64,000 nt of DNA from a virus, in the IMG/VR virus record IMGVR_UViG_3300020122_000089, positions 40,059-104,058 of that record. The stretch is one strand, 5' to 3'. The translations under genes were made by a program, and so were the position numbers. Of the stretch, positions 102 to 63,283 are shown piece after piece (within the stretch, counting starts at the first letter, position 1; the number at the start of each line of letters is the position of its first letter). The notes under the pieces are model-generated. The model searched no databases. It was not told where the DNA came from and was given only the letters and a program-made list of their open reading frames with translations.

Positions 102-2699
102 TTAGGTTCCAATGAATCCGCCTACGGCAGGAACGTCGCCACCACCGCCACTGCCAAATTGCTGCTGCCCACCAATCCCACCGGTAGGGACTACGCTGAA
201 AGGCTCTGATGCAACAGGATTTCCCGCTGTAATGCCTAAAGAATTAGTGTTGCGCTCTTTTAGGTTCTTCCTTACAAACTGTACGGGGGTTTTACCCGTA
301 ACCTGCATCACCCTTGCGATTTGTAAGTATGGGCCTGCCGTGTTTATAGTAGTCGAAGTGCGGAAACAAAGATAAGTGTCCTTCGCCGTGAAGGCATCCG
401 CTCTAATCATTGCCGTAGCTTCTACATAGAGAGGGGTGGTGGTGAATAGTGTACTTCCAAGCGAGATAATATCAGACTGCTGGACGGCAGCATGGACGGT
501 TTGTACGGTCGCCGTTCCGCTAAGGTTTGGCGTTACTTCAAACGACTGATCGTTTGTAATTGAAAGGACGGTGCGGACGTCATTGTTGATCGCCACCTCA
601 GCGCCTACCCTTAGTTCGGAGGTTGCAAGACCTAATCCGTTGTGTGAATTAACGGTATGGAGGTTCGCGTTTATATCCCAAGTGTCTGTCAAATCAAAAA
701 GACTCGCCAGTAATAGGTCGAGATTAGCGGTTAAGCTGCTATTAGAGGATAAGAAGAAGGTCCAACTCTTGAAATCGCCTCTTACGATGTTGGTGAATAA
801 ATCCTGTATAATGTACGCCTTATTTGCGGCGGAATCATTTTGACGCCAAAACGCTAAGTGGTTCGCTTGATCCCACCGGCCACGAGTGCTACCGGTTCCA
901 ATTCCAACAAATCCGCCCGTGGATATTCGCCACTGCTGCCAATTGCCCATGGTGGTAGGGGTAGTGCCATCGTCGTTTGTAAAATCGCCATTCCATAGAT
1001 CGTTGTCAAATGCCGTGTTAGGCGAATAATCAATCTGTCCACTCAGGGCTGGTATCGCCACAGAGGCCGCGCTTGTAGTTTGACCAACTGAGTTAGTCAG
1101 TCGAAATTGGCATATAAGCTGGACGTCGCCAAACAGTTTCCTTAATCGTTTTAGCGAAATTGGAATGCTTACTATGGTACCACGATCCGTCACATCGTAA
1201 AATACTACACCTGCGGCGCTAGTTGGGTTATCCAACTAGTTTAGATTCAAGCTAGTAGTCGCTGCAAAATCCGAGATGTTTAACTCTACCAATTTAACAG
1301 AAGCGATATTCGTAGCGTTCGCCATTGGCAGCTTGCAATGTAATTTGCCTCTTACAAAGAAAAACTTGGGCGCATCTGGAAGAACCGGCGCCGTTAAGTC
1401 CGCCGGTATATCGTCTGGTACGCCTGTCGAAAAAGAGGCTCGGGTAAATGTAAGCTGTAATCCACCTATCGCGGTAATTACCACCTGTAGATCGTAAGTC
1501 TGAGATGGCTTGAACCTTGCGCCATCTGCGATAACTATAGATTGGGCACCTGCGACTACTAATTCATTATGTTTCAAGGTGGTTTTGTCTATAAAAAGAA
1601 CATAAGCACCTACACTTTCAGAAGATAGCTTCCGGAAGACTTTGACATTTTTAGGCGCCACTGGCGTTGCAGGTTGCGTAAAATTTAAGGTTAACTTAGC
1701 CGCCTTTGAAGTGTAAGGAGGCGTTGTACTATCTATTGAAAGACTTGGGCTAGTCAGTAGTGTAGGGTCAACTGAAAACCCTCCGGCTGAAAAAGTGCAT
1801 CCACCGCCCGTACTTACGGATTTGTCATTTCCAATCCAGGTGATGTTTGCGGTCCAGTTTATTTGATCGCCTGGAATGTATCCTGTCTGTGTGATGTCTA
1901 CAAATCCTCGATTAACCTTAGTTGGGGAGTTTGGATCTACCTGTGTTAGCTCAACGCCATTCAAAACGTGTGTAATATGCTTTGCAACGAAACTACCTGA
2001 TTTAGCCACTACCACGACGGTATCAGAATTTGAAGCACCCCACGTTTGGGCATTACCAGATGCGTCGAGTGGTGCCCAAACCCTGTAAGTAACAATTGCT
2101 TTATAGTCTAGGTTTGGGTCTAATCCGTTTGCTGCAATTGCGCCTCCGACTATGCCACCCGTTATCCCTTGTATAAGTCCGCAGTTAGGATCCGATGGAA
2201 CGCCAAACAGTGACCCTAACGAAAACGTAATGAGATAATCAGATTCGTTTCTTGGTGAATCAGGAAAATCAATCGCAGGATTCTGTGTTCTCGCTCCATT
2301 TGAGTCTACAGAAACGAGCTTGATACAGCCATATTTCTTCCCTGCGTATAGCGGGATTGGAAAATCAAAGTCAAATACTGGCGGCGTCGGGGATGGTATT
2401 TCAATGTCGGCCGAGTTTATTCGCCATGTCACTGTGACGGGACTACCGGTACCTGTATACTCTTCTAATACCACCTTGAGCTTATTAGTATTGAACGGAA
2501 CTGCACATCTGAGAGTTACTATTACCCTGCCGTTTTTGCCAGGCTTTGTAGCCACAGGCCACGGGCCTATAGGCGTTAGGTCTGTAGGATTGCCCGCACC
2601 AGTAGTTCCTGTGCTTGAAGATTGCGCTGCAATTTGCTGGCGCAGGTCCTCAAGCATGTTCTGCGTCGTTGGATAATCTATGTCGCCGCCTATACCCAT
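102..2699 (-). CDS. virion/tail structural protein, interrupted by one in-frame TAG at 1236-1238 (487 aa + 377 aa in the same frame)
   Basis: ORFs 1236..2699 and 102..1235 are contiguous in one frame (AAC TAG TTG). Thr/Gly/Ser-rich beta-type sequence, located after the other tail genes. Confidence 0.55.
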
Positions 2700-2743
2700 T
2701 TCCTACTTGACCTTTTGACGTAAATATGTTATATTAAACACCG

Positions 2744-3646
2744 ATGACCAGAATACATACATTAAACGAGTCGCGTTTTGCACGGGTGGATTCTGAGGAT
2801 GCGGCCTATTGGTTAGGCTTTATTGCCGCTGATGGATGCGTGACCGACCAGGGTGATTTCGCCATACAGCTTGCCAGGCAGGATGAATGCCACCTCCATG
2901 ATTTACGAGATTGGTTTGGCAGTACACACGCCATCAGTCGTAAAGAACTACCATACCCTTCTTCATCTTTTACATTTCGATCACGTATAATCGCTGATAA
3001 TCTTGCCAGGTATGGGGTCACCCCTAGAAAATCCATAACCTTAAATTGGCCGTCAGAATTAAACCCCACCTTATATCGTCATTATATCCGTGGATATGTC
3101 GATGGCGGCGGAGGGTTATATTCCGGTAAGGCTCGATCAAACCAATCAACCTTCCATTTTAGCGTCATCGCCACTAAAACATTTGCAGATAAGCTACAGT
3201 CGGTGCTGATGTCAGAGTGTCGATTAAAGAAAACTAAGCTAGGTAAAAGTAAGGCTGGAATGGTTATTGTTGAATACGGAGGATTCTTGCAAGTTAAGAG
3301 AATTTTTCATTATCTTTACGATGGCGCTACTGTTTATTTATTGCGTAAACGATTTCCGATTCAATTAGCATTAAGCATGCACGTAAGACCTTCTAGCCAA
3401 CCAACCGACGAGCAGTATCAAAGGTGCGCAACATTGCCGCATGATGAAATTTGCCAACTATATATCGATGGTGATAGCACTGTTGACCTTTCTCGTAAAT
3501 ATAATGTTTCCATTGGCGCTATAACAAGTATAGTAAGGAAACATGGGCTATTAAGATCAACCAAGGAGGGTACGAGACTATACTGGGTAAGAAAGGGTAG
3601 CGAAATTCTTCCGGAGGAAATCAAATCCGAACTGGATGTTCTATGA
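2744..3646 (+). CDS. free-standing double-motif LAGLIDADG homing endonuclease with C-terminal HTH
   Basis: Motifs YWLGFIAADG and YIRGYVDGGG. Inserted antisense between tail genes with its own promoter (TTGACC 2707, 17 bp, TATATT 2730). Confidence 0.85.
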   Translation: MTRIHTLNESRFARVDSEDAAYWLGFIAADGCVTDQGDFAIQLARQDECHLHDLRDWFGSTHAISRKELPYPSSSFTFRSRIIADNLARYGVTPRKSITLNWPSELNPTLYRHYIRGYVDGGGGLYSGKARSNQSTFHFSVIATKTFADKLQSVLMSECRLKKTKLGKSKAGMVIVEYGGFLQVKRIFHYLYDGATVYLLRKRFPIQLALSMHVRPSSQPTDEQYQRCATLPHDEICQLYIDGDSTVDLSRKYNVSIGAITSIVRKHGLLRSTKEGTRLYWVRKGSEILPEEIKSELDVL

Positions 3647-5333
3647 ACAAACCCTCCGCACCCACAACCTGCTTGCCGCCAGCATCGCTACCGCTCATCC
3701 CTATTGCAAAACTATGAATTTCCTGGATATCTAAATGCTTGAACTGGCCTGTTTGATTCGCACCTTGAGAAATGTTTGTTCCTTGCGCATTTGACGTTGA
3801 GAGATTAAGATCGCTATAGATATCGAGCCGGTGGGCAACGTCTGCAATCGACTCGGCGCCTATAAAGGTTTTTCCAAACGCGGCAAAATCACCTGCTTGA
3901 AATTGAGATACTAAACTCCAACCTGTACCGCCGCCTGTTTCGGGGGTGTAAAGATTACCTGCCGAGTCAGAGAACAAAGCCCTTCCGTTTACAGTATCAG
4001 TTACCGCTGTAACTATCGAGGCAGGCATGTCCATTGGGGTGTTCCATTGGGCGAGATAACGATTGTAGGAGATACCGATCGAGCCATTAACATAAAATAC
4101 ACTATCCGATGCGGGGTCGTAACATACCACCACGTTGCCAGCGGCATACCCGTTAGCAGCAAAAAATTGCATAACAGGGGCGGCGAAAGAGGTTGCTTCG
4201 TCGTTCGGGTCGCGATAAGAGCTGCCACCTAAACTGTATCTATCTCTGACAGGGCCGCGAGTGCCAAGCCAGGCGTATATCTCACCTCCAACGGTGGCGA
4301 TTTGATTTGCACTTACCACACCTGTGGTTGGCCAAATTGGGTAGACGTTTAATGGGCTAATAGTGCTCTGTGATGCTGATACAAGATTCACACTTGAAGC
4401 GGTACAAACAAGGACCCGACCTTCAACGCCACTTCCTTTTACAGCAGTAATCGTTCCACCGCCGGGAATGAATAATACAAAACTTACGGGATAGGCTTCT
4501 GGCTTGTTTGGGTACGAGGGGGATAATCCAGCACCACCATAACATCCTGCCGCTACTATGACAGAATTGATTGCAAAACAAAAACCACAGGTGGGCGGAA
4601 CGCTGAAGGTCTGAGGAGCTAAATCGCCAAGCTGCGCGTCTATCCATCCAGGGGTTGTGTCGTTTGGTACTTGAATCGTATATGGAAGAGTCGGAATAGT
4701 AGTGTCGTAAAGATGAAAGTAAGGACCGATAGAACCAAACCCGCGCTTTGTAGCGTAAATGCCTATCTTGTTTGCACCAGCAGGAAGGCCGGGAAGGGCT
4801 GTGATATTTATTCCATGATTAGTGACTGATATGACATTTGAAGGTGCGCTGACGCTCGATTCGCCACCTGTTAAGGACCTGATTCCAGTAACGGCAATTG
4901 AATAAGCACCATTGTTATGCCCGGCGACGCCACTATCGGCTATTGTTGGCGCGCCTGGTGGTAAGAGGCCAGCAGCTACGGCCGAGCTTCCTGTGTAAAT
5001 CGTTACCGATCCGCCTTGAACAGCGCCAAGCGTTACGCCGCCAACCCTTGCAAATCCAGAGCCAGCGAAGAAATAAATTCCATTGCCAAAAGCCTGTACT
5101 ATACTTCCGCCACCGCTTAACCCTCCATAAGTAGAGGCGACATTTAATAGCGGATTCACGCCACCTGAACTAGCAACGGACCCACCAAAGCCTTTCGAGG
5201 TAATTAGTAACCCTTTACCACGTACCCATAGATTTTTACCGGCCAATAGGGTATGTGGTACGCCAAAGATTGGCGCAGTAGAGGGCCAATAGCCGTTTTC
5301 AAAGAAAAATCTCGCGGGTATTCTATCGCTCAT
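3621..5333 (-). CDS. putative tail/nozzle (head-stabilisation-type) structural protein
   Basis: 570 aa, Gly-rich beta-strand pattern, position after adaptor-like genes; family assignment is inference. Confidence 0.5.
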   Translation of the reverse strand: MSDRIPARFFFENGYWPSTAPIFGVPHTLLAGKNLWVRGKGLLITSKGFGGSVASSGGVNPLLNVASTYGGLSGGGSIVQAFGNGIYFFAGSGFARVGGVTLGAVQGGSVTIYTGSSAVAAGLLPPGAPTIADSGVAGHNNGAYSIAVTGIRSLTGGESSVSAPSNVISVTNHGINITALPGLPAGANKIGIYATKRGFGSIGPYFHLYDTTIPTLPYTIQVPNDTTPGWIDAQLGDLAPQTFSVPPTCGFCFAINSVIVAAGCYGGAGLSPSYPNKPEAYPVSFVLFIPGGGTITAVKGSGVEGRVLVCTASSVNLVSASQSTISPLNVYPIWPTTGVVSANQIATVGGEIYAWLGTRGPVRDRYSLGGSSYRDPNDEATSFAAPVMQFFAANGYAAGNVVVCYDPASDSVFYVNGSIGISYNRYLAQWNTPMDMPASIVTAVTDTVNGRALFSDSAGNLYTPETGGGTGWSLVSQFQAGDFAAFGKTFIGAESIADVAHRLDIYSDLNLSTSNAQGTNISQGANQTGQFKHLDIQEIHSFAIGMSGSDAGGKQVVGAEGLFIEHPVRI

Positions 5334-5430
5334 TTTCTTCCGGAAGAATTATTTTCTTGACATCTGATCGGAATTAACATATAGTTAATAACGTAGACGA
5401 TAGGAATCGTCAAAAGGGAGGGAAAGATCG

Positions 5431-8178: not shown

Positions 8179-8196
8179 TTGTTTCTTCCGGGAGAA

Positions 8197-9973: not shown

Positions 9974-10510
9974 ATGCTTTGGTGTTTATCTAACCGTTGT
10001 GATATACTTGCCTTACCGTTAGCTGATCGCCATTACAATCGCCAAAAGATAGGATCGCCACAATTCGTTCCGCCGGGCAGATGTATTGTCCTGCTAACCC
10101 CTCAAGCGGACGCTCTCTGGGTATCATCTTGGCCGTTAAAGGAATTCACAAAACATGCATGGTCTGGCGCATGGATCAATACATTATTCCGTAATGAATC
10201 TGATATTTTATCAAGCATACTAATTCAAGGGGCGGTAGCCATCACCCGTGGTATTTGGGGCGACCCACCCCGATTAGGTATGGTGACGTTCATTGATAAA
10301 ACCAAGGTAAAGAAGAAACGCGATTGGGGTAGATGCTACCGTCGAGCTGGATTTATTCCAGCGCAATGCCCGATTCATTATCCAGGGGTGACACGCGACT
10401 GCGCCTCTTGTCGTCATGAAACGTCTATCAACCATCTTTTTGCAGTACAGATGTTGCCGACGGCGATGCCCGAACCTAAGTATTTCCCGTCGTTATTTGA
10501 CTATCTTTAA
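9974..10510 (+). CDS. phage protein, possibly Mom-like/GNAT-fold DNA modification enzyme
   Basis: ADRHY...PPG and GRCYRRAGF motifs reminiscent of Mom-like proteins (inference). Leaderless start 6 nt after TATAAT 9962. Confidence 0.4.
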   Translation: MLWCLSNRCDILALPLADRHYNRQKIGSPQFVPPGRCIVLLTPQADALWVSSWPLKEFTKHAWSGAWINTLFRNESDILSSILIQGAVAITRGIWGDPPRLGMVTFIDKTKVKKKRDWGRCYRRAGFIPAQCPIHYPGVTRDCASCRHETSINHLFAVQMLPTAMPEPKYFPSLFDYL

Positions 10511-11111
10511 CCTTTGCAACATTCGCTGGGACAAAGTAATCCGTGTGGCAATCTTTGCATTGATGAACGAATCCGCCTGTTTCGCCAAGGATTTGTTTGT
10601 GTGCGGCATCTTCTTGCATGCCGTATTTTTTCATTGTTGAATCTAGGCGTTCTTTGTACTTCGGGTTGTCGATTGGAGGGTGCCACGGCCCGGCGTCAGC
10701 ACCACACGAAGGGCATTTTCCAGGCCCGTCGGCGGCATGCACCATATCGCCTTCGTATACTTCGCGGCCGTCTACGATTAAGAATCCGTCACCGCAAGGG
10801 ATTTTCTCGATGTTTTCATCCTTTGACATATCTTCGGTGGGCTCTTCGCTTGCCGCCATAGCTTTTGGTTCTTCCGGAAGATTGACAAAAACGGTTAGGA
10901 TATCTTTGCCGTCAAATTGAAGTGTGTATGATTCTTGCGGATCGACAAGAATAGAGCCAGCAGCGCCAACCTCACCAACCCCAGTAATCTCTATCTTATT
11001 GACAGGGGCGGATAAATACCAAGTGAGGCGCACTTTATCGCCCTCTACCTTAGCGGTAAAGCAGCTGATGATACTAGGCGGTGGTGGTTGCTCTATGTTG
11101 TCATCTGGCAT
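10476..11111 (-). CDS. hypothetical protein with Ig-like N-terminus and two CxxC motifs
   Basis: 211-aa ORF coupled to the upstream gene. Confidence 0.55.
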   Translation of the reverse strand: MPDDNIEQPPPPSIISCFTAKVEGDKVRLTWYLSAPVNKIEITGVGEVGAAGSILVDPQESYTLQFDGKDILTVFVNLPEEPKAMAASEEPTEDMSKDENIEKIPCGDGFLIVDGREVYEGDMVHAADGPGKCPSCGADAGPWHPPIDNPKYKERLDSTMKKYGMQEDAAHKQILGETGGFVHQCKDCHTDYFVPANVAKVKDSQITTGNT

Positions 11112-46163: not shown

Positions 46164-46184
46164 ATTCTTCCGGAAGAATTAAAA

Positions 46185-51099: not shown

Positions 51100-51305
51100 G
51101 ATTGATTCCTCCTGCCACCTTTTCGGCGGCGGTTATTGAAGCTGCCGCCTGAACGGCATCTATGATTGCTTTACCTGCGAGTTCGCCGGCTAGAAGTTTA
51201 CTAATTATTAAAGCACCGGCTTCGTCGTAGGTGTTTACTGTCACCTGCTGCGGGTTTTGTTCGATTAAGATTTGATGGGTAAGCATGAATTATCTTCCGG
51301 AAGAA

Positions 51306-52196
51306 TTAACCCGCCAATTCTTCTTGCTGTTCGCGGATTTGTTGAGTACGCGCTGAGATATGCGCATATGACGGCGCCGGCTTTGCGTTGTCGTGTAATG
51401 CTTTTGCCGTCTTTTCACCCATGCACTGCCCGCATACAGCGTAAGGACTGCGACCCATTGGCCCGTGACATTTCGAGCATTCTTTTTGTTGTTCTTTTAC
51501 TCGCTCGCGGTAGGATTTTAGTTCGTCATGCTTTTGACGTCCTTGCTCGGCTTTCTGTTGAACTATTTTTTTAATTTGTTCAATGCGAGGCTTTGCGGCT
51601 TCAACTTCTGCATCGGCAAGGATGACCGATTCTTTGTTCTTAGTGTCAGGGAAATTCTTAGAACGGATAACCTCAATCTGCTTGTCGGCGTCTTTTAGCG
51701 ATTTGTCTATGCTGATTGAATCATCGGGCGGCGTTGCTTGTTTCAAGTCGGCGCGACGACAAAGGCCGCGATGCTTTTTCTTGCCACACTTGTTGCAAAT
51801 TCTTGGCTCATCATCACGTATTACGCTCGCGCGGCATTTTGAGTTCTTGCATCTATAGCGCCCGCCTTCTTCGATGCGCATTTCACTTTGACACTTAGGA
51901 CGTATCTTCGATGCAACGGATTCAGGATCGGCTTTCTCTAAGAATTTCTCGAACGTGTTGTGCGCTACCTGTATAGCGTTGAAGGGGTTTGATTGTTTCG
52001 ACTTCACGGTTGGCGTTTGCCGCGAAGCGTTGTTTTCTACGTCAACGGCAATCAAATGCTCTAGGGCTTCAATACCCCTCCGTAGCGCTTCATCTTCGGC
52101 GGAAAGCGAGCGTATTTCGGCTTCTACGTCAGCTAGAGTGGCGCGCATTTCATCAAGGGTATCTTGAAAGCGGTGTTTTTGCGCTGTGGCTTTCAT
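51306..52196 (-). CDS. hypothetical basic protein with zinc-finger motifs
   Basis: Coiled coil plus several CxxC motifs. Confidence 0.6.
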   Translation of the reverse strand: MKATAQKHRFQDTLDEMRATLADVEAEIRSLSAEDEALRRGIEALEHLIAVDVENNASRQTPTVKSKQSNPFNAIQVAHNTFEKFLEKADPESVASKIRPKCQSEMRIEEGGRYRCKNSKCRASVIRDDEPRICNKCGKKKHRGLCRRADLKQATPPDDSISIDKSLKDADKQIEVIRSKNFPDTKNKESVILADAEVEAAKPRIEQIKKIVQQKAEQGRQKHDELKSYRERVKEQQKECSKCHGPMGRSPYAVCGQCMGEKTAKALHDNAKPAPSYAHISARTQQIREQQEELAG

Positions 52197-53234
52197 GCTA
52201 AATCTTTACGCCCTACCAAAAGGAGCGGGCCTGCGCATATGCTCCCTAACCCGACGCCCTTGGTCAACAACCTTTTTTAGCTCTGGGCGTTCGTGTTCAG
52301 GTCTAGTTTTCAAGTATCTCGACGCAGCTTCGGTCATTGGTGAATGCGTGGCAGAGTAGCCACAAGAAGGACACTTGCCGCCTTCCATTTTAGCGCCACA
52401 TTCGGGGCAAGTACCGGTGTCGGTTGCCGCAGGCTGTGGAGGTCCGCCTTGCGCTGACACCTGATCCGACGGGCCACCTGGCGCGCCAGCCGCAGCGCCC
52501 TGGGCCAATTGTGCGGCGTCATTGTCAGAATCGCCAGGGGCAAATTTTGTTCAGCATGAAGGACAGACCACCATGGCATCATTGTCGCCATCATGGTCGG
52601 GGTCTGATACGCCAGCACCGCCCTGCGGCATTGCGGCTGCTATATTTGAAGCGTTTAACATTGACATTATTCCTCTCCTTGATCGGTATAAAACGGGATG
52701 CGAATACCGCGTGAATAGATTATCTCGCCGCTGCTTAATCGGTCATATATCTTTTGCTCGCGGCTAAACCTCTCTGAAGGTGTCTCCATATAGCGCATTG
52801 CGAATTTTGCTATATCCTCTAATGAATCACTTTCCGGTGCTGATAAAGAGCGCTGGTGTAATATATCGCGCTCTAATTCGGCTAAGTGCTCGCCGCACGG
52901 CTCGTATTCATTACATTCGCAGGGCATAAATTTCTTCCGGAAGATTCAAAATAGAGCATGTACAACTTTAAGGGGTGTCAAGGGGGATGGATTTGCATAG
53001 CCATCTTCGTATTTGAATACGTGGATGCGTTCACGGTTTTTAGAGTATGTCATTAAGTGCAATAACTGGCTATACTCTCGTCGTTTTGTAATCTCAGTCG
53101 CGGCGCGTGAGGCGGTGATAGCGGTGCAGTCTAACGCTTTGTAGCCTTCGTCCTTCCATCGTTGAATATGCTCTGGCAATTCTATAGCGGTTATGTTTTC
53201 TACTGTAAACATGCGCATTGTTTCTTCCGGAAGA

Positions 53235-53441
53235 TTACTTATGAAATCCGCCTAATGTCTTAGCAAGATTAGCCCGCTGTGCGGTCTTTTTGCCATATCT
53301 ACCAGCGCGAGCGGCGGCGAGCTTTGAGGTGGGAATTTTCTCGCCCTGCGGTACGCCTAAATCCCTGTGTAGTTGTCCGGGTTTTCGGATAGCTTTCCCG
53401 ATCCATCTCTTTGAGTAGTTCGAGCCGTTATACTTTGCCAT
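53235..53441 (-). CDS. small basic conserved phage protein
   Basis: WI..AI.KPG.LH..LGVP.GEKIP...RANLAKTL motif common near packaging genes. Confidence 0.75.
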   Translation of the reverse strand: MAKYNGSNYSKRWIGKAIRKPGQLHRDLGVPQGEKIPTSKLAAARAGRYGKKTAQRANLAKTLGGFHK

Positions 53442-54129
53442 TTTGCTCTCCGGTTTGAAAGAGTTCTTGACAATGCACTACCCAACGGCCGTTAGGTAAC
53501 ACTGCGTAGCGGGCTAGTCTATCGTCAAGCATGCGGAAGGTTTTGTCGAGTGATATTATCTGATAGGGCCGCTCTGTGGTGACTGGAAACCGCCCACTCT
53601 CGCTAAAATAGAAGGCGCTTGGATTATCATCTCTTTTGTGGTAAACAAACCTATTACCACTCGATTTGATTACGGGAATCGCATAGCTGCATTCCGCCAT
53701 TTCATCTTGATACGATAGAAAGCAGAATCGGACAACGGATTCGGAAATGGATTTGTCAAAGGATCGTATCATTTCAGGGGTTGCAACGCCAATGCGGCCG
53801 TCAGCGGTACCGAGAAGTTCTTTTCGATATGAAACATAATCCTCAAGATGGTCGCCATCGAGTAGTGTTAGTGGAAGGCTGTCTTTCCAAACATACATAT
53901 CTTGCTGATTGCCATTTCTTCCTGATATCAGCATTGCTACAGGCTGTTCGCCTTCAAGATATCTCGAAACAATGTATACGCGACAGTCCGGAGAATGATG
54001 CCTCGAAATATCACCCTCTAACATAGGCGCTTGAGCAAGGTATTTCTTTTGAAACCATTGATCGCAGCAGTAGCCTGGAATCTCAAATACGGCGGCTTGT
54101 GTTTCTTCCGGAAGTATTGCTGCGCTCAT
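53428..54129 (-). CDS. hypothetical protein
   Basis: 233-aa ORF. Confidence 0.6.
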   Translation of the reverse strand: MSAAILPEETQAAVFEIPGYCCDQWFQKKYLAQAPMLEGDISRHHSPDCRVYIVSRYLEGEQPVAMLISGRNGNQQDMYVWKDSLPLTLLDGDHLEDYVSYRKELLGTADGRIGVATPEMIRSFDKSISESVVRFCFLSYQDEMAECSYAIPVIKSSGNRFVYHKRDDNPSAFYFSESGRFPVTTERPYQIISLDKTFRMLDDRLARYAVLPNGRWVVHCQELFQTGEQNGKV

Positions 54130-54312
54130 TTTAGACCTTGCTTCTTTTCGTAATGCTTAATGGTTCGAGGGGCATAATCGGGGAGGTTTTTAGGTGACTG
54201 CCCCTCGTGTATTCGGCGGCCTTTGAACGGGATAATCCTTTCGGGGCGGGGATGCTTCCCGACTGGATCGCTTTCATGTAGCCAAATTGGGCTTTACTCA
54301 CGCTTGGCATAA

Positions 54313-55089
54313 CTATTCCTCCGAAAGAAATGAACGCCCGGCACCCGCATACCGCTTGAGACTATTCATATCTATGTCATATGCGCGGTCGCTAGAACGT
54401 AATCTTTTCCAATCCGGCGGCTCCTGTTTCGACCATTGTCGAATTGTCGATGTGCGGAACCTTACATTCGTAACATGCGACGAAGCCCTAATCCCGTCCC
54501 TGCATAACACTTTCAACTTTTCTAGTTGGTATTGCATGCCGGGCTGTAACCCTTCAAATTCATAATCAACACGCCCGCCGTTCATTGTAGGGATGGGTGT
54601 TTCTATTTCCGATCGGATGATCTGATTATCAATACCGCGCAACACCGTCCTTAACCTCTCCGTGCCGGCAGGAATCCAGGCGGACAGCGTGGCGGCTACA
54701 TTACGATGTGTGTCAAATCTTTCGGCGATCTTAAAAGGCGTCAGCGGCTTCGGAAGTGGCAGACTGTTTATGCTTGAAGCGTCAAGCGCCACCATAGCCC
54801 TAAACGACTGCGCTGCTTTTTGAAGTTCGCGGGCTAGTTCAGTAGACGCAAGCCAAGCACCTTCTTCGGCGTAATAGATCGCTTTCATGTCTAGGTCAAG
54901 AGGTACTTCCCATTCCATACCAGACGGTAAAGTACCTTTGACCACTAAGCGTGGCGCGCCTAACCCATCAACAATGTCAGGTCCGTATTGCGTGTTCAGC
55001 CTAGCATCATGAACTTCGTTAGGCATCATCGCCTGTAATGAAGCCGAAGCTACAGATTCAAGATTTGCGGCCATATCTATAGCACTCAT
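54313..55089 (-). CDS. hypothetical protein
   Basis: About 258-aa ORF. Confidence 0.6.
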   Translation of the reverse strand: MSAIDMAANLESVASASLQAMMPNEVHDARLNTQYGPDIVDGLGAPRLVVKGTLPSGMEWEVPLDLDMKAIYYAEEGAWLASTELARELQKAAQSFRAMVALDASSINSLPLPKPLTPFKIAERFDTHRNVAATLSAWIPAGTERLRTVLRGIDNQIIRSEIETPIPTMNGGRVDYEFEGLQPGMQYQLEKLKVLCRDGIRASSHVTNVRFRTSTIRQWSKQEPPDWKRLRSSDRAYDIDMNSLKRYAGAGRSFLSEE

Positions 55090-55220
55090 TGCCAATACCT
55101 GTCGCCTTGAATTTTTGAGGTGTCAATTCGGAGCATGAAGGATAGAAGCCAAAATACAAAAACAACACCAATTGTCAGGACGATTAAGATTCCGATAGAT
55201 AACAGGATTGCAGCGAGCAT

Positions 55221-55577
55221 CTAATACATCCTCATAGGGGAATAAGGCGAAACGCCACGGAAGTTGGCGTATGGTTCTGGCGAGTTTGCGCCCGCCGTTG
55301 GAAAGCCTATCGGCCTTTCAGGTGAAGGCGCTGCAAGTGGTGGTAGTGCTTTGCCGCCTAAGTCTGGCGCTTGCTGGCTGAAAGATTGATTCGGTTGCTG
55401 TCCGTAAGGCTGTATTGACATCGTATCAGGTGTTGCACTGGCTAGTGGCTTTGCACCGCCAAGAGGATTCGCGTACATACCCTGCCCGTTACCTGCGCCG
55501 CCGCCAAAAGACATTCCGCCTTGCGAGAAGTCTGGCTGGCCGTATGCTTGCTGATTGTATTGGAAAGGGGATCCCAT
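55221..55577 (-). CDS. low-complexity Gly/Pro/Gln-rich protein
   Basis: 118-aa ORF with Shine-Dalgarno-like AAGAA/GGA. Confidence 0.55.
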   Translation of the reverse strand: MGSPFQYNQQAYGQPDFSQGGMSFGGGAGNGQGMYANPLGGAKPLASATPDTMSIQPYGQQPNQSFSQQAPDLGGKALPPLAAPSPERPIGFPTAGANSPEPYANFRGVSPYSPMRMY

Positions 55578-56156
55578 TTCTTTACTAATCCGCCACTATC
55601 GCTGTTGCTTTCGATAGCTGATTGAGAATTGCTGTGGTGAGTTTCATCCTTCCAGATGCTTCTAAAAATACGCACGCGGTCTCATGTGAAACCCTAGCGC
55701 CACACTTACATCGAAAAAAACATTGAACCGCATCATCTACCCAATCGTGAAGGTGTTGCATTTCCTATTTCCTCCGGAAGATTTTTCATTGTCTCCTTAC
55801 GTACCACGTATTCTAGTACGATTAACGTAAGTGGGTATTTTAGAGGCGCGCAACACTCTCGGAAATTTTATCCGAGAAGATTTCACGGCTCGATTATGAT
55901 GATTATAGCATAATACGGGGATGTTGTCAAGTGTTATTTTCAATACTTTCTTCCGGAAGATTCAATTTCTTCTTGTTTCGCACTCGCTTTATCAAGACAT
56001 TCTTGACAATAATTGCCGCCAATACACGGGTCGCCACATTGTGCACATCCATGATAGCGACACCAGGCATCGCTGTTGCTTCTGGGAGGATTACCGCAAA
56101 ATGGGACTAGGCACTGTAAATTACCTTCGGTTGTGGACGTATTATCGTTCATCTTA

Positions 56157-56528
56157 TCAATAAAGCCTCCGCTGTGGAAATGGCATCGCCATCGCTGGAT
56201 AGTCATCTTGTTGATGCTGTAATGGAACAAATGGCGCATTGACGTCCACCTGGCCGCCTCGCAACTGACCTGACGATCCCGGTCCCTGCCCGGTAAAATC
56301 ATACGCAAGGCCACCACCCATATCTAGTGGTAGCGCGTATGGCGCGGGTTGGTAGTTTGCCTTCGCCATCGCCTTCATTAACGCCATCTTGACGTAATCG
56401 TTATGCAGCGCGGGGTTTTGCTGTACTGTCGATTGCGCTGGTATCGTACCGGTACGCGGGGTTCCGTGGCGCGCCTGATCCGCGAGGATCATATATCTCC
56501 GCTCTATTTCATTACGGGGTGTGCTCAT
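56157..56528 (-). CDS. hypothetical protein
   Basis: ATGA overlap with the TerL stop. Confidence 0.6.
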   Translation of the reverse strand: MSTPRNEIERRYMILADQARHGTPRTGTIPAQSTVQQNPALHNDYVKMALMKAMAKANYQPAPYALPLDMGGGLAYDFTGQGPGSSGQLRGGQVDVNAPFVPLQHQQDDYPAMAMPFPQRRLY

Positions 56529-58105
56529 TTCATCCCTAGCTTCTTCATAAAATCTCCCTTGCCTTTCTTTGCTTCGCGGGCTTCATCTAGGAATTCTCGC
56601 ATCCAAAAGGCGGAGCTTACCTCCGCCATTGGGTGTGGATTGAAAGGCAAATTCTCGGGTTTTAGTGATTCGTCCAATCTCATCGTTGCTTTAGCGCGTT
56701 CGTCGTAATCAAGGCCCGTCATGTACTTTCTTGCACGGGCCCAACCTTCAGAAAGTGCGGAGATGATGTCATCATGGGCACCGGTTTGTGCGCCATAACG
56801 AATACGGCCGGAAGCAAGACGTTCCATCCCGTAAGATTCAAGCTCGGAGAGTAGCGTCGCATCGTTGGGGATAGAAATTTCCTTCCGTTCAAATGCTAAT
56901 ACAAGAGCCTGTACGGCTTCTTCTTTTGTTGCGTTCGTTACTGTAAAGCCTCGAACAGGAAGACCTTCTTCGCGCCCTTGACGCCCACGCCCTGACTTTG
57001 CGCGGTATTTCATCATCGAGAGGGCATCGGCAAGGGCGAGATTTCCTTGCTCCTCAGATACTATCTCTGCCGGTTGAAATGCTTCGCATAATGCAATAAG
57101 TCGAGCAATCTGTAATGTGTATTCTATTTGATTGAAACGGTCGATCTTGACTACTGATTTAGTTGAAGCGTCAATAACTACGAATACTGAGAAATCTTGT
57201 AGCTTTGCCCAGTCACAGCCTATTACGTAAACGTGGTAGGGCTCTGCCGATTCACGTTCGATACCTTGCTTGATACACGCATGTACGTTGCGGAATACAG
57301 CACCGCCATCCTCCAGAAATTCTGCGAGATATTCTTGTCGGAAAACATCTTCGGGGTACTCTTTTCTTGCTCTCTCAATTTCACTTGCCTTGATATAGGG
57401 ATTTGCTGAGGTTGGGAATTTCCAACTCATCCAATCGGTTTCTGCCGGGTCTTGCCCTTTGAGCCATAGTTTGTAGAATCCGCCCTTACCTGAAGGGGTG
57501 GAGGTAAACCACGCATCGCCTTCTAGGTCTATTAACGTAGGGGCGATGGCAAAGTTAAACGCCGCCTCTAGGTTTGGTATTAGCGCAGCTTCGTCTATTG
57601 CAACCCGTTTGTATTTACGACTACGGCCGGCCTTGTATTTGCCGGCGCTACCAGTCTCGCTGTCGAGCGACCACGCTTCAATGATTCCGCCTGTACTCAA
57701 TTCAATCCTGTGCTCTGAATCATTGGCACGTACTATCAGCGGTTCGGCGGCAGCCTTAATATCACGCCAGCCTTCGAGAAGAAACTTATAGGTGGGCGCA
57801 AAGTAACCTACAGGATATCCAGCCTCGGCCATCTCAACAAGTAGATTACTGTCGAGCTTTGTTTTACCGATACGACGACCGGCCGAGATTACGTTGAACC
57901 TTCTTGATTCAGCTACAATCTGCGCTTGTGCAGGGTGAAGAGCGAGCCTATGCGTCTTTGGCGCTTTAGCAGCAGCCTCTTGAGCCTCTAATGCCCGCCA
58001 CCGCTCCATATACGGAGCTAATAGTTCGTAAGGAGATGGTCTTTGATTTGCAGGCTGACTCATGCTGATTGTTGCTAGAAGTAATATGGCGGATAGGATT
58101 GGCAT
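56525..58105 (-). CDS. terL: terminase large subunit (start may be the later Met, MSQPAN)
   Basis: LHPAQ, Walker A SAGRRIGKT, Walker B VAIDEAA, STPSG, FRQEYLAEF, nuclease IGCDWAK..D and HDD. Confidence 0.95.
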   Translation of the reverse strand: MPILSAILLLATISMSQPANQRPSPYELLAPYMERWRALEAQEAAAKAPKTHRLALHPAQAQIVAESRRFNVISAGRRIGKTKLDSNLLVEMAEAGYPVGYFAPTYKFLLEGWRDIKAAAEPLIVRANDSEHRIELSTGGIIEAWSLDSETGSAGKYKAGRSRKYKRVAIDEAALIPNLEAAFNFAIAPTLIDLEGDAWFTSTPSGKGGFYKLWLKGQDPAETDWMSWKFPTSANPYIKASEIERARKEYPEDVFRQEYLAEFLEDGGAVFRNVHACIKQGIERESAEPYHVYVIGCDWAKLQDFSVFVVIDASTKSVVKIDRFNQIEYTLQIARLIALCEAFQPAEIVSEEQGNLALADALSMMKYRAKSGRGRQGREEGLPVRGFTVTNATKEEAVQALVLAFERKEISIPNDATLLSELESYGMERLASGRIRYGAQTGAHDDIISALSEGWARARKYMTGLDYDERAKATMRLDESLKPENLPFNPHPMAEVSSAFWMREFLDEAREAKKGKGDFMKKLGMK

Positions 58106-58340
58106 TGCAATTCTTCCGGAAGATTTAGCACTATCGGTAGGCTGCGAAAAACATTGCCGTAAGAATCAATACAAGTATCACATGCACTACGTATACAAGT
58201 TGATCTGCGTATCTTTCGGCGTCTCGTTGCGTCATTGATGATTCAGCCTTGATCATCCGCCCGCGAGCGGCACCGCAAGGAATTCCTTCAAAGACAGTCC
58301 GTTAGCCGTCCCTTGCAGAACTCGCGGGCGGAAACCTTTG

Positions 58341-58919
58341 TTACGCATTAGCGGCGGCATCCGCGGCCGCAAGTGCGTCAGTGATTGTTTGCCGGCTTTG
58401 TGCTACTGGTTCTGGTAGGGTTATCTTTGTCAAGTCGGCGTCGCGAAGCTCTTCAAATGTGTCAATACCTTCGCCGTTCAAAATACCGGCGAAAGGAAAG
58501 CTCAACGGGATAATGCCAATCGCTTGCTTCGCTAGAGGTGCTGGCGTCGGTGTTGGTGTCGGTGCTGGCGGCGTGAACGCGCTAGGGTCGGCAGCCTTCA
58601 CGGCGTCGTCCATCTTCTTCACATCGTCGCTTAACCCGCTGACGGCGGTAGCGATGCCCTGCAATGTGTCGAGTTGCGGCATGTCCCTGCCTATCTGCGT
58701 TTTCAAGTCAGTGACGGCGGTTTGCAGGTCTGCACTGAGGGTTGCGAGACTATCTTTCAAATCCACTAGCCCCTGGCTGATCGTATTCAGAACATCTTGT
58801 GCGGTTGACATTTTATGCTGTATCTCCTTTACTAGAACTCGAACAGAGAAAATAAGTTCATATAATGCGTCAAGACCAAAATAGTGGCGGATTTTCTTCC
58901 GGAAGAATTCATAAGGCAT
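58341..58919 (-). CDS. coiled-coil protein with Pro/Thr linker
   Basis: 192-aa ORF. Confidence 0.6.
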   Translation of the reverse strand: MPYEFFRKKIRHYFGLDALYELIFSVRVLVKEIQHKMSTAQDVLNTISQGLVDLKDSLATLSADLQTAVTDLKTQIGRDMPQLDTLQGIATAVSGLSDDVKKMDDAVKAADPSAFTPPAPTPTPTPAPLAKQAIGIIPLSFPFAGILNGEGIDTFEELRDADLTKITLPEPVAQSRQTITDALAAADAAANA

Positions 58920-59100
58920 TATACTACCTGACGGCGAGCGGCTTCGCGTAGTTTACGCTTCAAACATTCATCGCAAGACATGTATCTAACGCCTTGAGCA
59001 TTGTGGCGTTTTGTGCGTGGATTCTTAAAACAAGAGGCGCACATGTTCATGCGGATAGCATGCGCCCTGCGGATTTTGGTTTGTAATGGGCCGGGAGGAA

Positions 59101-59574
59101 TCATGCGCCCTCCATGCTATTTATTCGTGCTAACACTTGTAAGCGTTCACGGATTTTCTGTAATCTGATTTGCATTTTCATACGGCCTGGATTTTCCTTG
59201 TGGCGTTTGCCAGGCCCTAATCCGTGACCCATTTTGTTATCACGAAGGAAGGATACTTGCCTTCTGAAAATCTCATGACAGTGATTGCAATCGGTAGGAA
59301 GATGTGGAAGTTTTTCTTCGCCTCTCATAATGCGCATGTAAGATACCATGCCATCTGCGGAAAGCCAAGGGTGAGGATCGGCGGGCTGATGAGAATGAAA
59401 TTCAACCCTATTAAAATGGCTGCCGTGTATAACCCAAGTATTTGCACCTGGCGGTAGTGTTGGCGCGACAACCGATAGCACACGCCCGTTACCACTAACC
59501 AGCATCCCGTTAGGCGCTAGATTGGTTAGTGGTTTCAGGCTGTTAATATCGTAAGTTGGACTATTGGCGGACAT
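59101..59574 (-). CDS. hypothetical protein
   Basis: 157-aa ORF. Confidence 0.55.
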   Translation of the reverse strand: MSANSPTYDINSLKPLTNLAPNGMLVSGNGRVLSVVAPTLPPGANTWVIHGSHFNRVEFHSHQPADPHPWLSADGMVSYMRIMRGEEKLPHLPTDCNHCHEIFRRQVSFLRDNKMGHGLGPGKRHKENPGRMKMQIRLQKIRERLQVLARINSMEGA

Positions 59575-59943
59575 TGTTACGCAGCCTCACTTTCGTTTCT
59601 TCCGGAGGATAATTCGCGGAGTTTGGCGGATATCTTCTTTCTTTGAGGCGATAGGCTTAATGCACCACGGGCACCTAAACGAGAGCCAAGCCCACGTAAT
59701 GCTTTTAGCTGTAACTCAAAGGCATTTCTACAGTCAGAACATTTCGCTGGCTCGTGCGGTAGCTCTATTTCGCCTCGCATTAGCTGGGTGTAGGACTAGA
59801 GGCCGTCTGGTTCGAGCCAGGGGTGAGGACTGGAAAATCTACCCGCCCAACTATCATAGATTTTTTGATCGCGCTCAAATTGCTGCTTGATAATAGGATT
59901 GATTGCTTTAGAGAGCCCCACCTCGATGTCTTTGAAATTCAAA

Positions 59944-60579
59944 TCACTCATGATCGCCACTCCCCGCCACTGCTCCTTCCGGAAGATGATAAACGCCGTC
60001 TCCGTTATTGCTTCCGTTATTTGTCAAGATTAAATCTTCTTGTCTTAATAACTGGAGGTGTTCCTTGGGGACGCCCATAGAAACTACATACTTTAATGCT
60101 TCAGCGATAGCAAAACCTGCCTCTAATTGTACGCGGATCATTCCAGCTACTACCTCCCGCCTTTTTTCTGTTACGTCTTCTATTTGAATTGGGCCGCCAT
60201 TAGCACCTACATGCTCTACGGTGTTCTTTTCAAAATAACCACCCTTGGTTTTGAGCCATAATGATACGGCCCAAGGCTCTCTGCGCTTAATGGACTCAAT
60301 GAGCTTTATTTCGGAGAAGTCGGTGATATAAGTTCTTGCTTCATCCCTAGCCTTTGCCAATTGCGGATAAACATTGAGGTACCTATGAATGGTCTTTTGT
60401 GAGCATTGTAATGTTTTAGCGGTTGGTATAACTAATCCCTTATTTCTACGTAGCGCCCACTCTACTTGTTCAATAGTGAATTTTTCTTGTAAACGTGTAG
60501 AATATGAAGCCAACGGGAAACCATTACCGCCATTATTATCTATTGTGGATTGTTGTTGAGTGTCCATAAGTACAACCAT
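59944..60579 (-). CDS. terS: terminase small subunit-like HTH protein
   Basis: HTH (AKTLQCSQKTIHRY), W..LWLKTKGGY and VEHVGANGGPIQ motif; upstream of TerL. Confidence 0.7.
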   Translation of the reverse strand: MVVLMDTQQQSTIDNNGGNGFPLASYSTRLQEKFTIEQVEWALRRNKGLVIPTAKTLQCSQKTIHRYLNVYPQLAKARDEARTYITDFSEIKLIESIKRREPWAVSLWLKTKGGYFEKNTVEHVGANGGPIQIEDVTEKRREVVAGMIRVQLEAGFAIAEALKYVVSMGVPKEHLQLLRQEDLILTNNGSNNGDGVYHLPEGAVAGSGDHE

Positions 60580-60580: not shown

Positions 60581-61395
60581 CTAAGTGGTCAAAAGAAATT
60601 GCTTAATTCTTCTTCCAATAAACTCTGCAACGTTTGGGGTGACGGCGTTACCGATTCCTTTGTAACCACCCACCCAATCGGAAAGCCTCCCACCATCTCG
60701 GCTTCGCCTATCGTCAAGTAACGCGGGCCCCTCGCCGTTTCTATGTACGGGCATGGCGTCCGGTGTATTATACAAGTCGTAAGCGTTGGCTTCTCGCTTG
60801 CTAATTGCATCCATCCACGCTTTATCGCTCTCAATATAGGGGCATCGCTATGAAGTATTGAGGCGCTACAAGACCCTCCGGGATAGGCAACAATGAAGAC
60901 TCTACGGCGTCTTTGGGGTACTCCAAAGAATTGACTATCGAGCACTCTCCATTCCGCATCATACCCGATTTCGGCCAAGGCCCCAAGAACTCGGTCAATT
61001 CCTCGAAGAAGGAGCGCTGCCACGTTCTCCACGAGGACAACTCTCGGTCGTAATGCGTGAACGATTCTAAGGTATTCAACCCATAGTCCGCTTCTTGCAC
61101 CATCGATGCCTTCTCTATTTCCGGCGTTACTAATATCTTGACACGGGAATCCTCCGGCGAGGCAATCAACCCGCTCAAGCCCTCCGGCGTTAATAGTCCG
61201 AATGTCCCCGTATCGCTTGACGGTCGGCCAATGTTGCTTGAGGATTGTTCTTGCATAATCGTTTATCTCCACCTGCCAACGGCAAGACATCCCGGATCGT
61301 TCTAACCCTAAATCCAACCCTCCAATTCCCGAAAACAAACTACCAAACATTGGGGTGTTATTGCCATTATTAGACCGTGATAGATTGGCGCTCAT
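60581..61395 (-). CDS. C5-cytosine DNA methyltransferase locus of the overlapping alpha/beta type, with motifs spread over three frames
   Basis: LFSGIGG, GFPCQD, ENV, QRRRRVF and motif IX (GFPIGW) in 60589-61395; motif X (GNAVTP) in 60581-60814; beta-like ORF 60831-61256. Confidence 0.8.
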
Positions 61396-62388: not shown

Positions 62389-62913
62389 TTATTTCATTTC
62401 TTCCGGAAGAAGATGCGCGATTTCTTTAACAGAAACGTCGTGCTTGAAGTTGCTCATTATTCCTGTGCCCGATAAAAGAATGCGGACCCTATCACTTTCT
62501 TTTAGTCGCTTATCAAATAGGCCAGTCATACCGCTGTAGATCCCTGTACCTATCACCTTTACCGGATCGTTATGCCTAAACCCATAATCCGATACATCAT
62601 CGCGAATATCATCAAGCATTACAAAGCCGTCTCGCATTCTTGATTGGATTAGAACTATGTCGTAAACAGGAATAATTGCTGGAGCGCCGGCGAATTCAAC
62701 TATCGAACGAAAGCCCTGGGCGCGTCTGATGATTGCAAGATTGTCACCGTCGTTGAGATTGACACAGGCGAAAACGTATCGAGGTAAGAATGGGTAGATT
62801 CGTTTTCTCGACTCTTTAACTCTAGGTGCCATTGCAATGATATTTTCAGATTCAAGCGCATGTTTTAATCGCTGTTCTTGGGAGGGGTGGGTGTGTAGGA
62901 TATGCCAAGCCAT
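62389..62913 (-). CDS. NusG/RfaH-family transcription antiterminator
   Basis: W.ILHT.P.QE...PFLPRYVF (NGN domain) and G.RHNDPVKVIG.G.YSGMTGLF (KOW). Leaderless ATG 7 nt after CATACT. Confidence 0.85.
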   Translation of the reverse strand: MAWHILHTHPSQEQRLKHALESENIIAMAPRVKESRKRIYPFLPRYVFACVNLNDGDNLAIIRRAQGFRSIVEFAGAPAIIPVYDIVLIQSRMRDGFVMLDDIRDDVSDYGFRHNDPVKVIGTGIYSGMTGLFDKRLKESDRVRILLSGTGIMSNFKHDVSVKEIAHLLPEEMK

Positions 62914-63140
62914 GATTTTAAGTATGCGCAGCCGTTTACGGCGACTTCCCGTATTCTGAATTCTTCCGGAAGATTTCCCGCCACCGCCCTCTAGGTGGCG
63001 TTGCTGAGACTGCATAAACACGGAAAGGCGCCCTTTGGCAAGGCGCCTACGATTTTCGTCAGGATGCGCGTTGAATTCCTATGCATTCTCGCGTCCGATG
63101 ATTGTTTGTGCTTGAAAGTTACTACTCCAACTACTCTTGT

Positions 63141-63283
63141 AGTATAACATACTCCGGGCTGCTTGTCAAGTAAAAAATACACTGTTTTCTTCCGGAAGAA
63201 TTCAAAACTGACAAAATTTGATAGAAAATAATCGACCGGGTAGGCGGTTTTTACTTGACAAACATCCTTACTGAGCGCATAAT
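63141..63283. promoter_or_regulatory. divergent promoter pair flanking a perfect TTCTTCCGGAAGAA site
   Basis: Leftward TTGACA 63169, 17 bp, TATACT 63146; rightward TTGACA 63255, 17 bp, CATAAT 63278; palindrome at 63187-63200. Confidence 0.75.

Follow-up and report, generated by a model that had tools for sequence, protein, structure and literature searches.

A 14-bp palindrome repeated across a large phage genome: a candidate array of sites for a symmetric DNA-binding protein

The DNA described here is a 64,000-nucleotide window of a virus genome (bases 40059–104058 of the 104,058-bp IMG/VR record IMGVR_UViG_3300020122_000089, rated complete by CheckV and called G000 below). It carries an intron-rich capsid-gene region, portal-like, tail-fibre-like and large terminase (TerL) genes and a gene for an RfaH-like paralog of NusG, and a 14-bp palindrome, TTCTTCCGGAAGAA, recurs in and between its genes. 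A sequence-only reading of the window had counted 17 perfect copies, about 29 copies of the 12-bp core TCTTCCGGAAGA and about 11 variants. We recovered the same 17 and 29, counted about 12 window words that lack the core and, when the k-mer enrichment check suggested there was run, found no perfect copy in 100 dinucleotide-preserving shuffles of the window. The whole genome holds 51 cores and 30 perfect, 25 one-mismatch and 13 two-mismatch copies of the 14-mer. Window words at zero, one, two and three mismatches number 17, 16, 8 and 3, where composition predicts 0, 0.01, 0.2 and 2.4, so the three-mismatch class is already background and the family is sharp, all or none. Most one-mismatch copies deviate at the outermost base alone, often through a TAA stop codon that overlaps base 1, and we therefore take TCTTCCGGAAGA as the invariant unit. 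The centre is CCGG in 57 of 57 copies of the 10-bp core in G000. Half-sites alone are enriched 1.6–2.2-fold (apart from full copies, there are 32 TTCTTCC words where 18 are expected) and the full word more than 1000-fold; the word is under strong selection as DNA, with the whole palindrome, centre included, as the unit. A pattern scan of IMG/VR for the exact word gave single-copy background matches alone among the matches listed.

Copies were placed relative to genes on a crude map of greedy longest open reading frames (ORFs; 161 genes, 95% coverage). On this map, the 55 G000 copies at zero or one mismatch crowd around ORF boundaries: 76% are no more than 30 bp from one, compared with 13% of random positions. 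Of the 55, 22 are intergenic, 13 fall in the first 15 codons, 11 in the last ~20 and 8 elsewhere inside ORFs, and 1 spans the end of an ORF. The CCGG form, read from its sequence, is free of stop codons in every frame, and the 32 copies wholly inside ORF calls are translated as FFRK (7), LPEE (12) or SSGR (13). Because three frames and intergenic positions are used and gene boundaries are favored, selection acts on the DNA word and not on a peptide; both the three-frame usage and this conclusion had been proposed from the sequence alone. The accompanying description of the motif as written into genes, spacers and introns stands for genes and spacers. It is not confirmed for introns: the four candidate copies lie outside the group I introns that exceed the Rfam gathering score (67–91 bits; 24275–24518, 24663–25579, 26318–27248 and 27966–28911 (−)), and only the copy at 26138 falls within a fifth, marginal match (E 0.93). 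Homing-endonuclease domains of the HNH, GIY-YIG, NUMOD3 and LAGLIDADG types are encoded within window positions 2744–30758.

In the direction of the genes, the usual layout is a stop codon, 0–8 nt, the motif, 1–6 nt and an ATG. At junctions with a sigma-70-like promoter it becomes a stop codon, the motif, 5–20 nt and TTGACA-N17-TATAAT. A copy stands upstream of 6 of 12 strong sigma-70-like sites, at 5–54 nt, a rate about that of any junction; a classical activator site was rejected because the distance from motif to −35 ranges so widely in G000.

TerL (56525–58105, minus strand; PHROG 2) has few close relatives, and the sole other complete genome compared, IMGVR_UViG_3300012948_000003 (G001; 104,444 bp), encodes a TerL 56% identical to that of G000. 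G001 contains no copy of the CCGG form, even at two mismatches. It carries instead 25 perfect copies of TTCTTTTAAAAGAA, which has the same arms (TTCTT/AAGAA) and the centre TTAA in place of CCGG, mirrored on both halves; all four base changes between the two centres are transitions. The symmetry in G001 extends outward (T at −1 in 21 of 22 copies, A at +1 in 19 of 22, with A-T-T and A-A-T beyond), giving a 16–20-bp palindrome. Placement is much as in G000: 73% of copies have an ORF boundary no more than 30 bp away, compared with 14% of random positions. An A and then an ATG come next at 11 of 26, and two supply the stop codon of the upstream gene through their internal TAA. This CCGG/TTAA pair is a natural specificity swap, which makes binding tests clean.

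G000 and G001 have 36–38 detectable proteins in common in largely conserved order, and both have the motif at a few of the same junctions (the stop of the portal-like gene and the starts of a 1110-aa and a 499-aa gene). Common positions are few, and a test for orthologous placement between the two genomes was null (Fisher P 1.0 for starts, 0.28 for stops); as far as the two sequences can tell, positions are mostly non-orthologous and turn over. Closer relatives in Logan, P0003 (98.8 kb, TerL 77% identical) among them, were read as proteins alone. In a third, closer relative the giant protein P0122 (52% identical) contains four [I/V/L]LPEE peptides against 0.06 expected, all where G000 has no copy, and the RfaH-like protein P0132 ends in ...RILPEEII opposite ...HLLPEEMK in G000. 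These footprints imply that the CCGG form is present in at least one more genome, with one position kept and others turned over. The doubt raised earlier that the motif might be an assembly or adapter artefact is answered by an independent second assembly with a sister motif and by the peptide footprint in a third relative's proteins; the array is not an assembly artefact.

TerL relatives of ~40 kb carry neither the CCGG nor the TTAA form, and TerL-based scans of metagenome and genome contigs added no member beyond a 2.6-kb fragment. The closest TerL relatives in bacterial genomes are at most 47% identical. Among cultured phages, neither 12 kb of the sequence (megablast) nor the portal-like protein (tblastn) had a match, and TerL is at most 32% identical to any. 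No sequencing run, of RNA or of DNA, was listed for window positions 50000–59900.

Table 1. Copies of the palindrome and neighbouring features in the window (window coordinates)
Feature	Position	Strand	Context
Degenerate copy AGCTTCCGGAAGAC	1627–1640		10-bp core kept; then TTGACA; copy at the start of the range noted earlier (1629)
1-mismatch copy	3606–3619		Convergent ends of LAGLIDADG ORF (+) and 570-aa gene (−)
Perfect copy	5335–5348		1 nt before ATG of 570-aa gene 3621–5333(−); 8 nt upstream of + strand TTGACA-17-TATAGT
1-mismatch copy	8183–8196		Fills spacer: TAA-motif-4 nt-ATG
1-mismatch copy	10869–10882		9 nt before likely true ATG of ORF 10476–11111(−); G001 orthologue also has motif before start
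1-mismatch copy	11928–11941		
2-mismatch copy	12741–12754		Within 512-aa gene (LSPEE)
Perfect copy	13634–13647		Shine–Dalgarno sequence (SD) and ATG 26 nt downstream
Perfect copy	14487–14500		Within conserved 315-aa gene; DSSGRT against ungapped DDTGRW in G001
Perfect copy	15427–15440		Codons 3–7 (MQFFRKK); upstream TAA 13 nt earlier
2-mismatch copy	15782–15795		
1-mismatch copy	17194–17207		Stop, 3 nt, motif, 5 nt, −35 TTGACA
2-mismatch copy	19836–19849		Directly before start of gene 18828–19832(−)
1-mismatch copy	21802–21815		6 nt before ATG of glycosyltransferase gene 20578–21795(−)
Perfect copy	22618–22631		...FLPEE stop; next ATG 3 nt on
Perfect copy	23547–23560		Intergenic
Perfect copy	25752–25765		Intron-rich capsid-gene region; outside four Rfam intron spans
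Perfect copy	26138–26151		Intron-rich region; inside marginal group I match (E 0.93), outside four Rfam spans
Perfect copy	27760–27773		Intron-rich region; outside four Rfam intron spans
Perfect copy	29635–29648		Intron-rich region; outside four Rfam intron spans
1-mismatch copy	30314–30327		Overlaps TAA stop; ATG 12 nt on
1-mismatch copy	30792–30805		Stop, 8 nt, motif, 5 nt, TTGACA-17-TATTAT
Perfect copy	32340–32353		Left edge of motif-free island
Motif-free island, 12.4 kb	32354–44779		Flanked by two perfect copies; G+C 0.51–0.53, higher than elsewhere
Perfect copy	44780–44793		6 nt before ATG of 829-aa tail-fibre-like gene; right edge of island
Perfect copy	46165–46178		Stop of portal-like gene / next ATG (1 nt); G001 motif at orthologous junction
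1-mismatch copy	48955–48968		Last codons of gene preceding portal-like gene
Perfect copy	50725–50738		ATG 5 nt on
1-mismatch copy	51292–51305		TAA-motif-6 nt-ATG
1-mismatch copy	52932–52945		TGA-motif-4 nt-ATG
1-mismatch copy	53222–53235		Base 1 overlapped by TAA; motif-3 nt-ATG
1-mismatch copy	54103–54116		Codons 5–9 (MSAAILPEE)
2-mismatch copy	54316–54329		
2-mismatch copy	55769–55782		
1-mismatch copy	55948–55961		TGA-motif-17 nt-TTGACA-17-TATAAT (12/12 promoter match)
1-mismatch copy	58111–58124		TAA-motif-5 nt-ATG of large terminase gene 56525–58105(−)
Perfect copy	58894–58907		Codons 5–9 (MPYEFFRKK)
2-mismatch copy	59597–59610		
2-mismatch copy	59974–59987		
RfaH-like NusG paralog	62389–62913	−	174 aa from Met37 of ORF; first gene of ~97-kb leftward array
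Perfect copy	62398–62411		Last codons of RfaH-like gene (...HLLPEEMK); position conserved in 52%-identical relative (...RILPEEII)
1-mismatch copy	62961–62974		5' leader of RfaH-like gene, 47 nt before its ATG
Promoter-like site TTGACA-17-TATACT	63141–63169	−	For RfaH-like operon
Perfect copy	63187–63200		Between divergent promoter-like sites, upstream of both: 17 nt from leftward −35, 54 nt from rightward −35
RAMA-like ORF	63255–63656	+	24.1 bits against curated cut-off of 35.2; no counterpart in G001

Copies are spaced ~1.9 kb apart on average in G000 and 4 kb in G001, and they are spread evenly along the DNA. The coefficient of variation (CV) of the gaps is 0.78 in G000 with the motif-free island removed and 0.60 in G001, compared with 1.11 and 1.26 for random sets of real gene junctions (P < 0.0002 each). 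In the comparison with uniform random positions it is 0.76 against ~0.98 in G000 (island removed; P 0.02) and 0.60 against 0.94 in G001 (P 0.004). With the island kept, G000 shows no evenness relative to uniform random positions (CV 1.02 against 0.97, P 0.68). The 8.7-kb giant ORF of G000, a stretch without junctions, has four copies at one or two mismatches where ~0.03 are expected. Even spacing, even within giant genes, points to a function measured along the DNA and not gene by gene. Of the 47 places in the genome where an otherwise avoided hexamer occurs, 13 fall in the island itself (P 0.003), which looks like a younger stretch still to acquire the word.

In another reading, the word would be a linker for recombination (cassette shuffling by phage annealing recombinases) or a self-spreading mini-element copied to junctions, with no reader at all. 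Positions are mostly non-orthologous between the relatives, an island of different composition is flanked by two perfect copies, the 1110-aa gene has been relocated between G000 and G001 with copies flanking it in both, and the copy family is sharply all or none. ERF, a YqaJ-type exonuclease, RecA and RusA are all encoded, and Cluster O mycobacteriophages show insertions and deletions bounded by their own palindromes (PMC4351075). We nevertheless consider such a role improbable: it has no need for palindromy, even spacing or degenerate copies in giant ORFs, and junctions where a conserved gene meets a non-conserved one show no significant excess of copies (odds ratio 2.1, P 0.06 in G000; 0.9, P 1.0 in G001). 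The lone apparent 12-nt insertion relative to G001 (SSGR) is also there, as SSGS, in a closer relative, and another in-gene copy came by substitution (DSSGRT against DDTGRW).

The reading we favor, to which we give a little less than an even chance, is that the palindrome is a dispersed array of double-stranded DNA sites, chromosome-wide, read by a sequence-specific protein of two-fold symmetry, probably a dimer and probably encoded by the phage. We prefer a symmetric reader of duplex DNA because the dyad symmetry runs through the centre in two lineages and extends further in G001, the full palindrome is the selected unit, placement is tolerant and coverage is even. Copies occupy the places that coding constraints leave open, in stop-motif-start spacers and in first or last codons, and weaker ones persist inside giant genes, which offer no junction. 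The bound protein would control or organize the whole chromosome, in our preferred version by checking transcription from both directions where genes and operons end, much as stoperators or KorB act, and the array may work against the phage's own RfaH-like antiterminator. The centre may have changed jointly with the specificity of the reader, with restriction pressure as a possible cause. RNA folding is no competitor here: an intrinsic terminator or RNA hairpin was rejected, as the predicted fold is negligible (−0.5 to −1.2 kcal/mol in G000 and −3.3 for the 20-nt form of G001), the arms show no compensatory changes and the flanks are A-rich with no T run. The earlier proposal of a site array for a dimeric protein is thus the best fit to the symmetry in two lineages, the 16–20-bp extension, the negligible hairpin and the barely enriched half-sites.

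Several points weigh against this reading. No helix-turn-helix, ribbon-helix-helix, ParB or integrase family was found among 143 ORFs (Pfam, E ≤ 0.001), and PHROGs and the ESM Atlas were blank for the small proteins common to G000 and G001. The RAMA-like protein noted earlier at 63324 as the candidate reader gains no support, given its sub-threshold match and its lack of a counterpart in the arm-sharing G001 (Table 1). The reader may be host-encoded. The phage looks lytic, with no integrase, repressor or ParA family in the same Pfam search, in which most ORFs had no family; prophage maintenance, the classic reason for a silencing array, is thus without support. The distance from motif to promoter is inconstant, at 5–54 nt. 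Finally, a Shine–Dalgarno sequence (SD) precedes only 1 of 16 genes right behind the motif in G000 and 1 of 12 in G001, compared with 41% and 31% of other genes, and exactly one base separates motif and ATG at 11 of 26 G001 copies; these SD-poor starts and the one-base spacing hint at a role linked to gene starts that goes beyond tolerance.

Such a role could be played in the mRNA, where the motif would lie in the initiation region as the target of a translational regulator or endoribonuclease, or would stand in for the ribosome-binding element. Copies cluster within ~25 nt of start codons on either side, the genes next to them lack an SD, GGAAG sits at the SD position in G000 and the A-ATG spacing recurs in G001. 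We rate this as very improbable. The hairpin is negligible, and strict two-fold symmetry would be left unexplained. What the two lineages conserve is not an SD role, since the G001 form (AAAAGAA) lacks a purine core of the SD type. In the six cases with an intervening promoter, the copy is upstream of the −35 and outside the mRNA of the downstream gene.

The SD-less starts also bear on the RfaH-like protein, the only recognizable transcription factor common to both phages. It matches the Pfam NusG NGN domain (E 7e-11), its best solved match is RfaH (E 0.009) and its orthologue in G001 is found at E 9e-6; in both phages a copy of the motif lies 17–27 nt upstream of the −35 of its operon. An AlphaFold model has a mean predicted local distance difference test (pLDDT) score of 52 overall and below 50 for the NGN half, and the KOW part alone was compared: the C-terminal KOW-like barrel aligns with T. 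maritima NusG at Z 9.4 (rmsd, root-mean-square deviation, 1.7 over 56 residues). The ~220-nt leader of the gene contains a terminator-like hairpin (63022–63047) followed by a motif copy. It also contains the ops-like word GGCGGTGGCGGG, which was rejected as an ops element because the window has 94 matches of this kind where 47 are expected.

RfaH reads the 12-nt ops element in the non-template strand, the delay that it induces is thought to aid ribosome recruitment, and its targets lack an SD; B. subtilis NusG senses a TTNTTT motif in the non-template strand (PMC7819879). By comparison, the palindrome, which reads the same both ways, might be an elongation signal in that strand at which the RfaH-like paralog is loaded or re-loaded or polymerase pauses, so that transcription is kept processive over the ~97-kb array and ribosomes could be coupled to the SD-less genes behind the motif. 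This is the main alternative, although we think it rather unlikely. A two-domain NusG paralog is present in both phages and in a third relative, it heads the long leftward array with a motif copy in its own 5' leader, and the arms TTCTT(C/T) resemble the TTNTTT of B. subtilis NusG (PMC7819879). The genes that begin immediately behind the motif resemble RfaH targets in lacking an SD, and even spacing would suit repeated re-loading. Identity in the NGN domain is 24% between G000 and G001, whose centres differ, and 53% between the two phages that share CCGG.

On the other side, dyad symmetry would not be required by a monomer that reads a single strand, yet both lineages have it through the centre, and in G001 it spans 16–20 bp. 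The ops element is an asymmetric 12-mer found about once per operon leader, and TTNTTT is a loose 6-mer; neither is palindromic, unlike the ~55 copies in G000, which occupy a third of junctions. The residues of RfaH that contact ops, which we take to be K10, H20, R23 and Q24, are not kept and align to H, A, S and E in the phage paralog. The NGN half of the structural model is poor (pLDDT < 50), and the ops-like leader word is within background. The copy at 63187 is upstream of both divergent promoter-like sites and so probably outside both predicted transcripts, where the two transcription arms of the genome begin. The fullest form of the idea, in which the palindrome would be a bidirectional ops-like load or pause site every 2–4 kb for an RfaH-type factor that keeps the host polymerase processive along the one-directional array and hands SD-less genes to ribosomes, with the centre co-evolving with the NGN domain, seems to us quite doubtful. 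Even so, an RfaH-like factor together with SD-less starts behind the motif offers a testable alternative mechanism to the symmetric duplex reader.

What might have changed the centre is suggested by the restriction record of the two genomes. Palindromic hexamers are depleted more than 5-fold for 16 of 64 in G000 and 24 of 64 in G001, compared with 0.3–2% of non-palindromic hexamers; AGATCT occurs 0 times against 31 expected and CGATCG 0 times against 65, and most of the 24 in G001 have zero copies. The avoided sets differ between the genomes, which suggests different hosts or different restriction pressure. In G000 there is one TTTAAA, the core of the G001 motif, against 25 expected, and on this ground we propose restriction pressure as the cause of the centre change: a host restriction enzyme may have made a TTAA centre untenable in the G000 lineage, where reader and sites would have re-evolved. 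TCCGGA is avoided in neither genome and, outside the motif, occurs 22 times in G000 against 24–26 expected.

A closer tie to restriction-modification would make the motif itself a methylase or nuclease word (TCCGGA here, TTTAAA in G001) that serves protection or self-marking. G000 encodes a C5 cytosine methylase (60589–61395, minus strand) and three N6/N4 methylases, and each phage spares its own motif-core hexamer amid extreme purging of hexamers. We find this hardly credible, as restriction pressure depletes sites and does not multiply them, and it would leave junction placement and even spacing unexplained. With TCCGGA outside the motif at expectation, the selected unit is a 12–14-mer, well beyond known methylase words, and the TTAA centre of G001 offers no cytosine to a C5 methylase; the suggestion of a methylation-linked motif in the sequence-only reading fails on the same two counts. 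The C5 methylase may be split or truncated, to judge from its 268-aa ORF, which aligns to profile positions 3–161 of 324 and is followed by a 211-aa ORF (59944–60579, minus strand) without a family match.

Among described systems, the closest is that of the Cluster O mycobacteriophages, which carry 34 invariant copies of the 17-bp palindrome TGTTCGG-N3-CCGAACA, suggested by Cresawn et al. (2015) to be sites for a dimeric regulator (PMC4351075). Both arrays comprise more than 30 near-invariant dyad copies in short intergenic spaces, at gene 5' ends and within some genes, and both are absent from other phages; in G000 we likewise found tens of near-invariant copies, placed at gene ends, between genes and in genes, and a word that is lineage-specific among the phage genomes compared. 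The Cluster O word has an N3 spacer, whereas that of G000 is a continuous 14 bp with an invariant centre. Cluster O genomes have one motif at mostly the same positions, whereas G000 and G001 show a mirrored change of centre, and the spacing in G000 is demonstrably even, unlike the Cluster O description. Neither the hosts nor the phage lineages are related; the nearest TerL of a cultured phage is 32% identical. The array is thus of a kind already described in Cluster O, to which it adds a mirrored swap of the centre, evenly kept spacing and an RfaH-like factor.

Stoperators of Cluster A phages (L5, Bxb1) are asymmetric 13-bp sites that point along transcription and bind a monomeric immunity repressor in temperate phages (PMC6550527, PMC9283540). 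Like the palindrome they are genome-wide (20–30 sites), mostly off promoters and in short intergenic spaces, with a consensus that varies between relatives and changes along with the reader; their binding blocks elongating RNA polymerase. By analogy, the lineage-specific centre and non-orthologous positions seen here would match the divergence of repressors and stoperators among Cluster A phages (PMC6550527). The L5 comparison drawn earlier is therefore useful as a working analogy and breaks down at the level of the site, which in G000 is a perfect palindrome and neither asymmetric nor oriented, in a genome where no repressor or integrase was found (Pfam, 143 ORFs). The KorB-O_B and KorA-O_A systems of IncP plasmid RK2 also use dispersed identical palindromic operators and a dimeric reader for silencing at a distance (PMC11790492). 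KorB is a ParB-family CTPase clamp, whereas none of the 143 G000 ORFs gave a ParBc match (Pfam, E ≤ 0.001), a search that a divergent member may have escaped. RK2 has about a dozen O_B sites, far below the copy number in G000. The start-associated sequences (SAS) of Cluster K phages are of the same 13–17-bp class and repeated at gene starts, and they are asymmetric and contain a ribosome-binding site; the conserved inverted repeats (CIRs) of Streptomyces phage phiC31 are palindromic, repeated and repressor-bound in a temperate phage with a known repressor.

Other features of these genomes deserve record. A 15-bp tandem repeat, GCGCAAGTCCGAGCC (minus strand, ~20 units), lies at both ends of the G000 contig (window 63811–64000 and genome 1–115) and accounts for its 95-bp 'direct terminal repeat'; an ORF there has a Pentapeptide-repeat match (E 3.8e-12). 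As the repeat reads, the contig ends are an assembly break within it and not proven physical termini. The giant ORF (2887 aa; genome 28726–37389, minus strand) probably encodes an injected polyvalent protein; it contains a domain of the histidine-phosphatase family (E 1.4e-15) and matches ART-PolyVal weakly. The homologue in G001 is 5243 aa long and that in a Logan relative 3765 aa. Two ORFs within window 32363–63656 have family matches, one to the Thoeris inhibitor Tad5 (PF25190, E 3.7e-24) and the other to a double zinc ribbon. The 334-aa glycosyltransferase-like gene (18828–19832) is 48–71% identical to genes on palindrome-free IMG/VR viral contigs of 64–67% G+C, apparently unrelated carriers, which suggests that a glycosylation module has spread horizontally between unrelated phages. 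G001 has an 18-bp periodic repeat inside genes (GAGMGAACCA and 8 variable bases, ~20 units; 22549–22950 and 82632–83680), probably a 6-residue protein repeat.

Overall, the near-absence of TTTAAA from G000 suggests that host restriction can force the rewriting of a genome-wide phage signal. If the reader of the palindrome is found, it would define how large lytic phages control or organize a whole chromosome.

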